Source: Escherichia coli (lineage in GTDB: Bacteria; Pseudomonadota; Gammaproteobacteria; Enterobacterales; Enterobacteriaceae). Taken from it: a stretch of 64,000 nt of DNA. The stretch lies in NCBI RefSeq assembly GCF_016903815.1, contig NZ_CP069973.1. One strand, 5' to 3'. Below the pieces are notes generated by a model. The model saw only the letters and a list, made by a program, of their open reading frames with translations, did no database searches and had not been told where the DNA came from. This document shows positions 29,784 to 59,997 of this stretch, one piece after another (the first letter of the stretch is position 1; every line of letters begins with the position of its first letter). Made by a program: the position numbers and the translations under genes.

Positions 29784-29859
29784 TCCTCTGTAGTTCAGTC
29801 GGTAGAACGGCGGACTGTTAATCCGTATGTCACTGGTTCGAGTCCAGTCAGAGGAGCCA
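29784..29859 (+). tRNA. asnT: tRNA-Asn (GTT), the HPI integration site
   Basis: TCCTCTGTAGTTCAGTCGGTAGAACGGCGGACTGTTAATCCGTATGTCACTGGTTCGAGTCCAGTCAGAGGAGCCA, 76 nt. Confidence 0.97.
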
Positions 29860-30020
29860 ATTTTCTGTTTTCATGCATCCTTGCAAATCTTTATCTGATG
29901 TTGATTCAACAGGTTAGTGTGAAAACTCTTCTCGGTGCATTTTGATTTTACCCTACGCATCGGGAAAAATTGGTGGTCAAATCTGGGATCAGGTTAGTTC
30001 GATAATGGAGTGACCCCCAT

Positions 30021-30936
30021 ATGTTCCTTACCGACGCAAAAATCCGCACCCTCAAGCCTTCTGATAAACCCTTTAAAGTCTCCGATTCTCACGGTCTGTA
30101 TCTGCTGGTCAAGCCGGGTGGCTCCCGCCACTGGTATCTCAAAGCTGGAGGTTGCGTCCCGCACACGGCAGCACCTGAGTAACATAATGCGCCATGCGGT
30201 CCATCAGGAGTTAATCGATACGAACCCTGCAGCAAACCTTGGCGGCGTGACCACACCTCCTGTCAGACGGCACTATCCTGCCCTGCCGCTGGAGCGGCTG
30301 CCTGAACTGCTTGAACGTATTGGGGCATATCATCAGGGCCGTGAACTGACCCGGCATGCCGTTCTGCTGATGCTGCATGTGTTCATTCGCTCCAGTGAAC
30401 TGCGTTTCGCCCGCTGGTCAGAGATTGATTTCACAAACCGAGTCTGGACGATACCCGCGACGCGAGAACCCATTATTGGCGTGCGTTATTCCGGCCGCGG
30501 GGCAAAAATGCGAATGCCGCATATCGTCCCCCTCTCAGAACAGTCCATCGCCATTCTGAAACAGATTAAGGATATCACCGGTAATAATGAACTGATCTTC
30601 CCCGGCGACCATAACCCGTATAAGCCAATGTGTGAAAACACGGTCAATAAGGCACTGCGGGTGATGGGTTACGACACGAAAAAGGATATCTGCGGTCACG
30701 GCTTCCGGGCAATGGCATGCAGTGCGCTGATGGAATCGGGTTTATGGGCAAAGGACGCAGTAGAACGCCAGATGAGTCATCAGGAGCGCAATACCGTGCG
30801 CATGGCTTATATTCATAAGGCAGAGCACCTAGAAGCCCGCAAAGCGATGATGCAGTGGTGGTCGGATTATCTGGAAGCATGCCGAGAATCTTATGCACCG
30901 CCTTATACAATTGGTAAAAATAAGTTTATCCCATAG
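30021..30936 (+). pseudogene. int: P4-type tyrosine integrase of HPI, internally deleted and frameshifted
   Basis: ATG 30021 encodes an integrase N-terminus (MFLTDAKIRTLKPSDKPF...GSRHWYLK) that stops at about 30180. The catalytic C-terminal domain continues in a different frame to 30936. Total span is about 305 codons versus about 420 for intact P4-like integrases. Confidence 0.8.
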
Positions 30937-31129
30937 TATACTAACGAATCCCTCACTCTGGCAAATTACCACCACCTCCACAGGAGGTGGTTCTATATAG
31001 ACTTTTATCAACTTCATGACGAAAAACACCTATTTTATCCCAAAAGAAGACAATAGAGTCACAGAGGAATCAAAGAGCGACTCAATTGTCTTTGGACAGT
31101 CTGGTTGTGAGGTTAGAAAACAGTTACTC

Positions 31130-57886: not shown

Positions 57887-57937
57887 CACCATTGTCGGTA
57901 TTTTTGGCGTTTCGCCGTCTTACAGGGACTCACAACA

Positions 57938-59959
57938 ATGAAAATGACACGGCTTTATCCTCTGGCCTTGGGGGGATTATTGCTCCCCGCCATTGCTAAT
58001 GCCCAGACTTCACAGCAAGACGAAAGCACGCTGGTGGTTACCGCCAGTAAACAATCTTCCCGCTCGGCATCAGCCAACAACGTCTCGTCTACTGTTGTCA
58101 GCGCGCCGGAATTAAGCGACGCCGGCGTCACCGCCAGCGACAAACTCCCCAGAGTCTTGCCCGGGCTCAATATTGAAAATAGCGGCAACATGCTTTTTTC
58201 GACGATCTCGCTACGCGGCGTCTCTTCAGCGCAGGACTTCTATAACCCCGCCGTCACCCTGTATGTCGATGGCGTCCCTCAGCTTTCCACCAACACCATC
58301 CAGGCGCTTACCGATGTGCAAAGCGTGGAGTTGCTGCGAGGCCCACAGGGAACGTTATATGGCAAAAGCGCTCAGGGCGGGATCATCAACATCGTCACCC
58401 AGCAGCCGGACAGCACGCCGCGCGGCTATATTGAAGGCGGCGTCAGTAGCCGCGACAGTTATCGAAGTAAGTTCAACCTGAGCGGCCCCATTCAGGATGG
58501 CCTGCTGTACGGCAGCGTCACCCTGTTACGCCAGGTTGATGACGGCGACATGATTAACCCCGCGACGGGAAGCGATGACTTAGGCGGCACCCGCGCCAGC
58601 ATAGGGAATGTGAAACTGCGTCTGGCGCCGGACGATCAGCCCTGGGAAATGGGCTTTGCCGCCTCACGCGAATGTACCCGCGCCACCCAGGACGCCTATG
58701 TGGGATGGAATGATATTAAGGGCCGTAAGCTGTCGATCAGCGATGGTTCACCAGACCCGTACATGCGGCGCTGCACTGACAGCCAGACCCTGAGTGGGAA
58801 ATACACCACCGATGACTGGGTTTTCAACCTGATCAGCGCCTGGCAGCAGCAGCATTATTCGCGCACCTTCCCTTCAGGTTCGTTAATCGTCAATATGCCT
58901 CAGCGCTGGAATCAGGATGTGCAGGAGCTGCGCGCCGCAACCCTGGGCGATGCGCGTACCGTTGATATGGTGTTTGGGCTGTACCGGCAGAACACCCGCG
59001 AGAAGTTAAATTCAGCCTACGACATGCCGACAATGCCTTATTTAAGCAGTACCGGCTATACCACCGCTGAAACGCTGGCCGCATACAGTGACCTGACCTG
59101 GCATTTAACCGATCGTTTTGATATCGGCGGCGGCGTGCGCTTCTCGCATGATAAATCCAGTACACAATATCACGGCAGCATGCTCGGCAACCCGTTTGGC
59201 GACCAGGGTAAGAGCAATGACGATCAGGTGCTCGGGCAGCTATCCGCAGGCTATATGCTGACCGATGACTGGAGAGTGTATACCCGTGTAGCCCAGGGAT
59301 ATAAACCTTCCGGGTACAACATCGTGCCTACTGCGGGTCTTGATGCCAAACCGTTCGTCGCCGAGAAATCCATCAACTATGAACTTGGCACCCGCTACGA
59401 AACCGCTGACGTCACGCTGCAAGCTGCGACGTTTTATACCCACACCAAAGACATGCAGCTTTACTCTGGCCCGGTCGGGATGCAGACATTAAGCAATGCG
59501 GGTAAAGCCGACGCCACCGGCGTTGAGCTTGAAGCGAAGTGGCGGTTTGCGCCAGGCTGGTCATGGGATATCAATGGCAACGTGATCCGTTCCGAATTCA
59601 CCAATGACAGTGAGTTGTATCACGATAACCGGGTGCCGTTCGTACCACGTTATGGCGCGGGAAGCAGCGTGAACGGCGTGATTGATACGCGCTATGGCGC
59701 ACTGATGCCCCGACTGGCGGTTAATCTGGTCGGGCCGCATTATTTCGATGGCGACAACCAGTTGCGGCAAGGCACCTATGCCACCCTGGACAGCAGCCTG
59801 GGCTGGCAGGCGACTGAACGGATGAACATTTCCGTCTATGTCGATAACCTGTTCGACCGTCGTTACCGTACCTATGGCTACATGAACGGCAGCAGCGCCG
59901 TCGCGCAGGTCAATATGGGTCGCACCGTCGGTATCAATACGCGAATTGATTTCTTCTGA
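57938..59959 (+). CDS. fyuA: TonB-dependent yersiniabactin/pesticin outer-membrane receptor FyuA/Psn (673 aa)
   Basis: Signal peptide, TonB box (STLVVTAS), C-terminal terminal-Phe beta-barrel signature (...INTRIDFF). Confidence 0.95.
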   Translation: MKMTRLYPLALGGLLLPAIANAQTSQQDESTLVVTASKQSSRSASANNVSSTVVSAPELSDAGVTASDKLPRVLPGLNIENSGNMLFSTISLRGVSSAQDFYNPAVTLYVDGVPQLSTNTIQALTDVQSVELLRGPQGTLYGKSAQGGIINIVTQQPDSTPRGYIEGGVSSRDSYRSKFNLSGPIQDGLLYGSVTLLRQVDDGDMINPATGSDDLGGTRASIGNVKLRLAPDDQPWEMGFAASRECTRATQDAYVGWNDIKGRKLSISDGSPDPYMRRCTDSQTLSGKYTTDDWVFNLISAWQQQHYSRTFPSGSLIVNMPQRWNQDVQELRAATLGDARTVDMVFGLYRQNTREKLNSAYDMPTMPYLSSTGYTTAETLAAYSDLTWHLTDRFDIGGGVRFSHDKSSTQYHGSMLGNPFGDQGKSNDDQVLGQLSAGYMLTDDWRVYTRVAQGYKPSGYNIVPTAGLDAKPFVAEKSINYELGTRYETADVTLQAATFYTHTKDMQLYSGPVGMQTLSNAGKADATGVELEAKWRFAPGWSWDINGNVIRSEFTNDSELYHDNRVPFVPRYGAGSSVNGVIDTRYGALMPRLAVNLVGPHYFDGDNQLRQGTYATLDSSLGWQATERMNISVYVDNLFDRRYRTYGYMNGSSAVAQVNMGRTVGINTRIDFF

Positions 59960-59966
59960 TTATTGT

Positions 59967-59997
59967 AAAAGGGATACCGAAAAGGTATCCCTTTTAC
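59967..59997 (+). terminator. fyuA rho-independent terminator
   Basis: AAAAGGGATACC-GAAAA-GGTATCCCTTTT: 12-bp stem, 5-nt loop, T-tract. Confidence 0.8.

Follow-up and report, generated by a model that had tools for sequence, protein, structure and literature searches.

The siderophore gene cluster beside asnT in this stretch of 64,000 nucleotides of Escherichia coli DNA (the window) raises two questions: whether it encodes an intact Yersinia-type system, and whether it is still a complete mobile island. The first-pass annotation had described it as a complete yersiniabactin high-pathogenicity island (HPI) at positions 29843-59997. Our results show that the term "complete" holds for the siderophore locus but not for the mobile element, in which intB is a pseudogene, attR and an excisionase are absent and the right end is deleted. 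As judged from the sequence, the locus is almost certainly the common E. coli yersiniabactin HPI at asnT, immobilised, with intact siderophore genes and a four-operon cargo. All of its features, from the gene content and the site of insertion to the deletion at the right border (PMC2606025) and the intB allele without bp 124-470 (PMC2801613), are known from earlier publications. Nothing in it is novel, as had been anticipated, and this type of HPI has been described before (PMC2606025; PMC2801613; PMC7545054).

Identity and extent of the island

Between positions 29000 and 64000, the DNA is 100% identical to many sequenced E. coli chromosomes with annotated ybt, irp and fyuA genes, and the island sequence occurs identically in hundreds of deposited genomes. 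A RefSeq-annotated record that is one base off the window was the source of the gene names. The HPI is carried by 2258 of the 5426 complete E. coli genomes (~40%). The gene order in K-12 is mtfA-asnT-yeeJ, and homology to K-12 stops at 29863 and restarts at 60965, which identifies this asnT copy as the insertion site, in agreement with the original proposal. The borders of the island lie at 29861-60964, giving a length of 31.1 kb. The left border was thus placed essentially exactly by the first-pass annotation (the att core spans 29844-29860), whereas position 59997, given as the right border, marks only where the fyuA terminator stops, and the island is about 1 kb longer.

The GC content from ybtS to fyuA is 58.9%, compared with 50.0% in the upstream 29.8 kb and 47.2% in the downstream flank, and it is 60.1% in irp2 and 60.6% in irp1, so that the contrast to the flanks noted earlier, above all for these two genes, was correct. 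At the gathering thresholds of Rfam, only two tRNAs were identified, and no riboswitch or sRNA in the island.

Siderophore genes and pathway assignment

The eleven genes ybtS-ybtX-ybtQ-ybtP, ybtA, irp2-irp1-ybtU-ybtT-ybtE and fyuA were all found in the order proposed for them:

31130..32434, minus strand: ybtS/irp9, salicylate synthase (NCBIfam TIGR03494, 680 bits, cutoff 325)
32462..33742, minus strand: ybtX, MFS transporter (RefSeq; RhtX/FptX family match below the curated cutoff)
33735..35537, minus strand: ybtQ, ABC transporter half, inner-membrane importer subunit (RefSeq; Walker A, signature and Walker B present)
35524..37326, minus strand: ybtP, ABC transporter half, 600-aa form (ABC motifs present)
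37493..38452, plus strand: ybtA, AraC-type activator (RefSeq; identical to the 536 protein)
38643..44750, plus strand: irp2, HMWP2 NRPS, ArCP-Cy1-A(with embedded MT)-PCP1-Cy2-PCP2 (Pfam domains)
44838..54329, plus strand: irp1, HMWP1 PKS/NRPS, KS-AT-MT-KR-ACP-Cy3-MT-PCP3-TE (Pfam domains)
54326..55426, plus strand: ybtU/irp3, thiazolinyl imide reductase (TIGR01761, 535 bits, cutoff 189)
55423..56226, plus strand: ybtT, type II thioesterase (RefSeq; GHSMG motif)
56230..57807, plus strand: ybtE, salicyl-AMP ligase (RefSeq; closest NCBIfam model an aryl-acid adenylase; identical to the 536 protein)
57938..59959, plus strand: fyuA/psn, TonB-dependent yersiniabactin/pesticin receptor (TIGR01783 above cutoff)

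Each of the eleven genes is one uninterrupted ORF with no frame-disrupting lesion in the window sequence, and the checked catalytic and carrier motifs are all present, which bears out the claim that the biosynthetic genes are full length. The protein lengths (YbtS 434, YbtX 426, YbtQ 600, YbtP 600, YbtA 319, HMWP2 2035, HMWP1 3163, YbtU 366, YbtT 267, YbtE 525 and FyuA 673 amino acids) are the same as in strains 536 and SE15, and there are no internal stops. For ybtP, RefSeq calls a 570-aa form starting from 37236, while the match to the UPEC protein supports residues 1-600. HMWP2 contains carrier serines at positions 52, 1439 and 1977, the DxxxxD motif of the Cy domains and the adenylation core motifs A3, A5/6, A7 and A8. 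In HMWP1, the KS domain contains TACSSS (Cys198), HGTGT and GH, the AT domain GHSVG and the KR domain GxxGxxG, and there are two SAM motifs, carrier serines in LGMDSL at 1849 and LGGDSL at 2854, and a GWSYG motif in the TE domain at 2978. The predicted domain orders of both megasynthases are canonical.

The stop/start overlaps described earlier were confirmed at four junctions: irp1/ybtU (4 bp, ATGA), ybtU/ybtT (4 bp, GTGA), ybtP/ybtQ (14 bp) and ybtQ/ybtX (8 bp), while ybtT and ybtE are separated by 3 bp. Such overlaps suggest that genes in the ybt operons may be translationally coupled.

NCBIfam contains no yersiniabactin-specific HMMs, and its matches are generic (salicylate synthase, thiazolinyl imide reductase, TonB-dependent siderophore receptor); YbtT had no match at all to it. 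The assignment to a pathway is therefore based on the RefSeq gene names and on sequence identity to proteins of solved structure. YbtS is ~99% identical to Irp9 of Y. enterocolitica (PDB 2fn0) and YbtU ~97.5% identical to Irp3 of the same species (PDB 4gmf), FyuA equals Psn of Y. pestis (PDB 4epa) at 651 of 653 residues, and YbtP equals the UPEC protein (PDB 6p6i) at 597 of 600 residues over its full length, 1-600. HMWP2 is near-identical to the HMWP2/Irp2 fragments 7ry6, 7jtj and 5u3h in PDB. Together with the RefSeq annotation, this near-identity to Yersinia proteins substantiates the view of the locus as a Yersinia-type system. The prototype HPI of Y. pestis, Y. pseudotuberculosis and Y. 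enterocolitica 1B carries the same eleven ybt/irp/psn genes, likewise inserted at an asn-tRNA gene with a P4-like integrase, and its proteins are 97-99.7% identical to those in the window where solved Yersinia proteins exist.

The generic nature of the NCBIfam matches would also accommodate another thiazoline siderophore pathway of the pyochelin, piscibactin or divergent Klebsiella ybt-like type, and a diverged ybt locus does exist, in K. michiganensis, at only 87% identity. The pyochelin pch locus and the piscibactin irp-HPI of Vibrionaceae share with the window a salicylate starter, Cy-domain NRPSs, a thiazolinyl reductase, an AraC-type activator and a TonB-dependent receptor. However, their sequence similarity to the window is distant, and they belong to another family. 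The next-best PDB match for HMWP2 is PchE, which is far weaker, with 757 bits over ~1000 aa compared with 1035 bits over the 446 aa of HMWP2 Cy1. The first-pass annotation had named homology to a different siderophore pathway as the outcome that would overturn it. Instead, the proteins are 97-100% identical to the solved yersiniabactin proteins from Yersinia and UPEC, and the DNA is 99.4% identical to and collinear with PAI IV of strain 536. The probability of a different pathway is thus vanishingly small, and these identity values rule it out.

Within the species, the common or "normal"-type HPI, as in PAI IV536, SE15 and UTI89, resembles the window in its asnT site, gene order and gene lengths. 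The eleven proteins are 98.9-99.9% identical to those of SE15 (99.1% for YbtX), with 57 amino-acid differences in all. HMWP2 differs from its counterpart in strain 536 at 42 residues, mostly within a mosaic tract towards the 3' end of irp2 (Cy2-PCP2, from about residue 1450), for which the two strains have different alleles, that of the window being the commoner one in the species.

Borders and mobility of the island

The structures at the two ends are as follows:

29784..29859, plus strand: tRNA-Asn (GUU), the asnT copy that is the integration target (ARAGORN, Rfam, K-12 mtfA-asnT synteny)
29844..29860, plus strand: 17-bp att core (attL), CCAGTCAGAGGAGCCAA, overlapping the 3' end of tRNA-Asn
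30021..30936, plus strand: intB, P4-type tyrosine integrase pseudogene adjoining the tRNA (RefSeq "frameshifted"; alignment to int of Y5)
59999..60964, plus strand: AT-rich (33% GC) island tail, present in the E. coli genome set only with the island (2258/5426)
60965, no strand: right-end deletion junction (three-way alignment of the window, the Klebsiella element and K-12)

The intB pseudogene at 30021-30936 was absent from the first-pass annotation. It lacks 347 bp (bp 124-470 of the 1263-bp gene) at the junction 30143|30144, after which a frameshift leads to a stop after 53 codons. Compared with the intact int of strain Y5, the sequence is 100% identical downstream of the deletion and 99.4% identical upstream. 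The deletion leaves only half of the arm-binding domain and little of the central domain. Strains 536, SE15 and Y5 have the intact 1263-bp gene, whereas the deletion junction is present in 333 of the 5426 genomes, ~15% of the HPI-positive ones. The deleted allele has been described before, also from isolates of an enterobacterial collection (PMC2801613). In E. coli, it occurs in distant backgrounds, serotypes O26:H11, O103 and O102:H6. Karch et al. 1999 are said to have possibly described a truncated int in STEC O26.

At the right end, a 295-aa ICE/HPI gene begins within the tail at 60651 but is preserved only as far as codon 106, and the 106-aa fragment has no match in PHROGs. Junction 60965 joins codon 106 of this ORF to about codon 73 of yeeJ, creating an in-frame chimera at 60651-61361 of the island ORF and a signal-less YeeJ LysM/beta-domain fragment. 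The deletion has removed 584 bp of backbone (the asnT-yeeJ spacer and the 5' end of yeeJ) as well as attR, the excisionase and all remaining island DNA, and has destroyed yeeJ in the process. The junction occurs in 2070 of the 5426 genomes, including SE15, and strain 536, with the same deletion into yeeJ, is collinear with the window across it. The common E. coli HPI has been characterised by a "unique deletion of the fyuA border" (PMC2606025), and the window shows both the asnT copy and a fyuA-border deletion with loss of the direct repeat and adjacent backbone.

The right arm was compared with Klebsiella plasmids from PLSDB rather than with Yersinia DNA. A search of genome contigs with an exact 24-mer from the 3' end of fyuA gave hits only in Salmonella diarizonae, whose homology to the window ends at 59992, and in K. 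michiganensis, where it ends at 59960, with none in Yersinia; neither of the two helped to position the right arm. ICE-type HPIs (ICEEc1 of ECOR31, ICEKp1 and the Klebsiella plasmid ybt loci) match the window at ~97% identity throughout the int-to-fyuA core and for ~1 kb beyond it. In the Klebsiella plasmid locus examined, this tail continues into the complete 295-aa ORF, an AlpA-type excisionase and further genes, none of which the window contains. The HPI of Yersinia retains the 17-bp repeat at either end, a right arm that is AT-rich and contains IS elements, and the Hef/Xis excisionase; that of Y. pseudotuberculosis can excise (in part from PMC2801613). The window, by contrast, retains only ~1 kb of the right arm and has neither attR nor xis nor a working int.

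Could the island nevertheless still move by itself, as an excisable HPI or an ICE? The 308-aa ORF at 30010-30936 keeps the entire integrase catalytic domain, and ICE-type HPIs are known from E. coli ECOR31 and UMN026 (PMC2606025; PMC7545054). However, IntB is without half of its arm-binding and most of its central domain, and its frame is broken. A search of the 64-kb window that tolerated up to 3 mismatches found no second copy of the 17-bp att core, and on the right the island ends in a deletion joined to yeeJ. Even an integrase supplied in trans would miss its right-hand substrate. A tblastn search of the window identified neither an AlpA-type excisionase nor any of the genes downstream of fyuA in the Klebsiella element, and no excisionase or ICE ORFs lie between fyuA and yeeJ. 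Of the hallmarks of an excisable Yersinia- or ICE-type HPI (repeats at both ends, a functional integrase and an AlpA/Hef-type excisionase), none is complete here, and there is no T4SS or mobilisation module of the kind that distinguishes ICEs, the conjugation module of ICE-type HPIs (PMC2606025; PMC2801613) being absent from the window. Self-mobility is thus extremely improbable. With an intB pseudogene, no second att repeat and no excisionase, the island appears to be fixed in place.

The most plausible history is that a P4-type integrase integrated the element at the asnT 3' end, that a later deletion on the fyuA side may have eliminated the first part of yeeJ along with attR and the excisionase gene, and that the 347-bp deletion would have further inactivated intB in this lineage. 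Spread would then be only passive, with large pieces of chromosome being transferred and incorporated by homologous recombination, as described for fixed islands (PMC2606025). It is very unlikely that the decay products, the IntB catalytic ORF of 308 aa and the chimera of island ORF and yeeJ (~2070 genomes), are expressed with a regulatory or other role, or that selection for integrase loss rather than hitch-hiking explains the spread of the deleted intB allele.

Regulation, production and significance

Putative regulatory sites were identified in the three intergenic regions that bear promoters:

37403..37427, no strand: overlapping Fur-box-like sites in the divergent ybtP/ybtA promoter region (4 and 5 mismatches in 19 to the Fur consensus)
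38535-38568, plus strand: inverted repeat ACCCGAAACGGG...CCCGTTTCGGGT in the irp2 promoter, putative YbtA site (sequence match)
38580-38598, plus strand: predicted Fur box in the irp2 promoter (sequence match)
57818-57851, plus strand: inverted repeat in the fyuA promoter, putative YbtA site (sequence match)
57864-57882, plus strand: weak Fur-like site in the fyuA promoter (6 mismatches in 19)

The Fur boxes and YbtA repeats are matches at the sequence level; the 64-kb window contains five Fur-box-like sites in total, three of them inside ybt promoters, and a 23-bp block of the irp2 promoter, AAATAAACCCGTTTCGGGTAGCA, recurs exactly at the fyuA promoter. A four-operon scheme under Fur and YbtA has been described (PMC8725597). 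Generic scans of the island for sigma-70 promoters and terminators gave chance-level counts and missed both real terminators, which were identified by folding: a strong hairpin at 38483-38517 downstream of ybtA (-29.3 kcal/mol, z = -7.7) and the fyuA terminator hairpin at 59964-59998 (-24.1 kcal/mol, z = -8.3).

The predicted four-operon yersiniabactin system is intact, and its function is established for the family. YbtS would convert chorismate to salicylate, which YbtE would adenylate, and HMWP2 and HMWP1 would join salicylate, three cysteines and one malonyl unit, with one thiazoline ring reduced by YbtU and editing by YbtT. The metal-siderophore would be taken up across the outer membrane via FyuA and the inner membrane via YbtPQ. 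YbtA would switch on the operons, and under iron-replete conditions Fur would repress them. The carrier domains would be primed by a phosphopantetheinyl transferase (PPTase) encoded elsewhere (EntD, or ClbA), since this enzyme is supplied in trans and is not island-encoded in any species (PMC3708854).

Production is beyond what sequence alone can show, and a structurally intact locus could still be silent in the source strain if it had a missense or regulatory defect or if a factor needed in trans were defective. Neither the PPTase gene nor tonB lies within the window, and the 57 amino-acid differences from SE15 concern a documented producer (PMC3708854). On the other hand, the genes contain neither stop codons nor frameshifts, every catalytic residue that was checked is in place, and the promoter elements are conserved. 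Identical alleles are also widespread in clinical isolates, which argues for their maintenance by selection. We therefore consider a silent locus unlikely. Some HPI-positive strains, such as CFT073, are not known to make yersiniabactin although they carry the island, and production could be lost through a single amino-acid substitution or through damage to genes elsewhere in the chromosome (entD, tonB, fur).

The island is ordinary and already known, and its description adds no discovery value; the practical yield is a corrected annotation, with borders at 29861-60964, dead mobility genes and the loss of yeeJ. In extraintestinal pathogenic E. coli, the yersiniabactin island is known to contribute to virulence and fitness through the handling of iron, copper and zinc by yersiniabactin, and the source strain, which carries it, is likely to have a raised extraintestinal pathogenic potential.

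Identity and integrity of the yersiniabactin locus

From about 27 kb onwards, the window and the E. coli strain 222 chromosome differ at one base only (56056, in ybtT); positions 1-29095 are identical to that record, and sequenced E. coli chromosomes match 29000-64000 at 100% identity. RefSeq orders the strain 222 genes as msrQ, zinT, tRNA-Ser, mtfA, tRNA-Asn, a frameshifted tyrosine integrase, and then the ybt genes. Since K-12 carries mtfA-asnT-yeeJ-yeeL at the matching place, the tRNA-Asn is its asnT copy. The Rfam search returned nothing except tRNAs.

Features of the locus and its flanks (gene strands and fragments from the RefSeq annotation of the strain 222 record)
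29784-29859, tRNA-Asn(GUU), from ARAGORN and Rfam
29844-29860, 17-bp att core CCAGTCAGAGGAGCCAA, left end of the island
minus strand, ybtS, ybtX, ybtQ, ybtP
plus strand, ybtA, irp2, irp1, ybtU, ybtT, ybtE, fyuA
after fyuA, inverse autotransporter fragments and GT9 glycosyltransferase fragments

By protein sequence, the island is assigned to the Yersinia-type yersiniabactin system. FyuA matches the Y. pestis pesticin receptor (4epa) at 651 of 653 residues, YbtS is ~99% identical to Y. enterocolitica Irp9 (2fn0) and YbtU ~97.5% to Irp3 from the same species (4gmf), YbtP matches the UPEC YbtP used for cryo-EM (6p6i) at 597/600 residues, and deposited HMWP2/Irp2 fragments are near-identical to Cy1, PCP1, and Cy2 of HMWP2, the irp2 product. 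These identity values rule out another siderophore pathway. The NCBIfam models are generic only; those for salicylate synthase, thiazolinyl imide reductase, and TonB-dependent siderophore receptor scored above their cutoffs.

The first-pass annotation had described full-length biosynthetic genes with intact catalytic motifs, overlapping stop/start junctions, and an elevated GC content, all of which were confirmed. All eleven genes are uninterrupted reading frames of canonical length, the same as in UPEC 536 and SE15, and the proteins are 98.9-99.9% identical to those of SE15 (57 differences in 9,408 residues). Pfam gives the domain order ArCP-Cy-A (with an inserted methyltransferase)-PCP-Cy-PCP for HMWP2 and KS-AT-MT-KR-ACP-Cy-MT-PCP-TE for HMWP1, the irp1 product. 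Motifs were found in HMWP2, HMWP1, YbtT, YbtP, and YbtQ wherever checked: in HMWP2, carrier serines 52, 1439, and 1977, the Cy DxxxxD, and adenylation core motifs A3, A5/6, A7, and A8; in HMWP1, KS TACSSS, HGTGT, and GH, AT GHSVG, two SAM motifs, KR GxxGxxG, two carrier serines, and TE GWSYG; in YbtT, GHSMG; and in YbtP and YbtQ, Walker A, signature, and Walker B. The gene overlaps of 4-14 bp make translational coupling plausible. The GC content of the locus is 58.9%, versus 50.0% upstream and 47.2% downstream.

RefSeq starts ybtP (35524-37326) at 37236, giving 570 amino acids, while the reading frame from the ATG at 37326 encodes 600; the longer start is probably real, because this product matches residues 1-600 of the solved chain (6p6i). 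Compared with the island of strain 536, 90 of the 168 SNPs fall within 43000-45000 (the irp2 3' end and the irp2-irp1 spacer), where divergence is ~4.5% versus ~0.3% elsewhere, and this cluster looks like a recombination tract. Among 2265 carriers, 1164 are at least 99% identical to the window allele here and 1099 are 95-99% identical; two or more irp2 3' allele classes therefore circulate.

Putative regulatory sites and the predicted pathway

Putative regulatory features
37403-37427, putative Fur-box matches, ybtP/ybtA divergent region
38483-38517, strong terminator hairpin, 3' of ybtA
38580-38598, putative Fur-box match, upstream of irp2
57864-57882, weaker putative Fur-box match, upstream of fyuA
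59964-59998, strong terminator hairpin, 3' of fyuA

Only five Fur-box-like sites of comparable quality occur in the entire 64 kb; a generic promoter/terminator scan was uninformative. The irp2 and fyuA promoters have in common an inverted repeat, ACCCGAAAC...GTTTCGGGT, as well as a 23-bp block without a mismatch between the two. These candidate elements fit the pseudopalindromes termed "YbtA RS", which have been described at every HPI operon (PMC8725597).

By analogy with the established family, YbtS would convert chorismate to salicylate, which YbtE would load onto the HMWP2 ArCP, and HMWP2 would add and cyclise two cysteines. HMWP1 would then perform malonate extension, methylation, reduction, addition of the third cysteine, and product release, with YbtU reducing the middle thiazoline and YbtT editing. 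The metal complex would be imported via FyuA/TonB and YbtPQ, and the operons would be activated by YbtA with yersiniabactin and repressed by Fur-Fe.

The claim that the entire system is present stands for what any HPI encodes; production also needs a priming gene outside the window, and in E. coli the carriers are primed by EntD or ClbA (PMC3708854). Judged from sequence, the enzymes, transporters, regulator, and promoter motifs are intact, and SE15 is listed as a producer of both enterobactin and yersiniabactin (PMC3708854). That the locus is structurally intact yet silent is considered improbable.

Borders and loss of mobility

On the left, K-12 homology ends at 29863, and no second copy of the att 17-mer was found in the window with up to three mismatches allowed. 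The adjacent P4-type integrase pseudogene, intB, measures 916 bp versus 1263 bp when intact. Alignment with the strain Y5 gene places a clean 347-bp deletion (bp 124-470) between 30143 and 30144, with no microhomology at the junction. Read from its native ATG, intB stops after 53 codons, and the deletion removes residues 42-157 of the intact protein; the arm-DNA-binding domain (3-87) thereby loses its second half and the central domain (98-191) most of its length.

Further upstream, ~220 bp (28034-28255) replace ~1 kb of K-12 sequence, and yodB (cytochrome b561), which K-12 carries between zinT and serU, is missing. An IS1 copy (21253-21950) is flanked by an HD-domain gene (20760-21203) and hchA (21954-22694), both truncated at the 5' end; 20760-22694 appears to have lost the genes in between through an IS1-associated deletion.

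The right end had been placed at 59997, which is merely the end of the fyuA terminator hairpin; the island runs to 60964. K-12 homology returns only at 60965, within yeeJ at about codon 73; missing from the window are ~584 bp of K-12 sequence that hold the spacer between asnT and yeeJ together with the start of yeeJ, which encodes the signal peptide. From 59998, the AT-rich right tail has 33% GC. The stretch 59960-60964 occurs in 2258 of 5426 E. coli genomes, all island-positive, and, at ~97% identity, directly 3' of fyuA on ybt-carrying Klebsiella plasmids. An exact-match scan of genome contigs with a 24-mer from the fyuA 3' end returned no Yersinia. Given the att core at the left and the yeeJ deletion junction at the right, the island proper spans 29861-60964 (31,104 bp; 57.7% GC).

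On the Klebsiella plasmids, this stretch is followed by a complete 295-aa hypothetical gene, an AlpA-family regulator of the excisionase type, and further genes. Of the 295-aa gene, the window retains only the first 106 codons, which are 96% identical and run in frame into yeeJ; it contains no trace of the excisionase or of the later genes. A PHROGs search with the truncated reading frame gave no match. Three-way alignment maps the junction to 60965, where a single G is shared, and 2,070 of the 5,426 genomes, ~92% of carriers, have the identical junction, SE15 among them.

The E. coli tail also lacks, at 60246-60257, ~210 bp found in the Klebsiella element (7296-7506 of that locus) between fyuA and the 295-aa frame. 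The inverse autotransporter adhesin gene yeeJ (2339 aa in K-12) persists only as fragments (60651-63418): it has lost its first ~72 codons where the island joins it and ~3.7 kb internally at ~61288 (3545-7239 of the comparison locus), and it shows further gaps. The 236-aa product annotated at 60651-61361 as an "inverse autotransporter beta domain protein" joins the 106 island codons to YeeJ residues ~73-184 in a chimera without a signal peptide.

The integrase is dead, attR and xis are missing, and a deletion junction lies in yeeJ; these three independent lesions exclude a still-mobile element. The island is well described rather than novel, as first noted: the earlier finding is correct and ordinary, each observation has been published before, and hundreds of deposited genomes contain the sequence. 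Paauw et al. 2010 reported the exactly matching intB allele ("bp 124-470 was deleted") in isolates of an enterobacterial collection (PMC2801613). An 80-bp probe across this junction (30104-30183) matched 333 of 5,426 complete E. coli genomes, ~15% of island carriers, and the deletion is identical in unrelated serotypes (O26:H11 and O103 STEC, and O102:H6). Schubert et al. 2009 found the right-border deletion in all HPI-positive ECOR strains but ECOR31, and argued from it that the island is fixed and spreads through homologous recombination involving large fragments (PMC2606025). The occurrence of the identical intB deletion in unrelated serotypes and in that enterobacterial collection is consistent with the island being passed from one lineage to another along with its inactive integrase.
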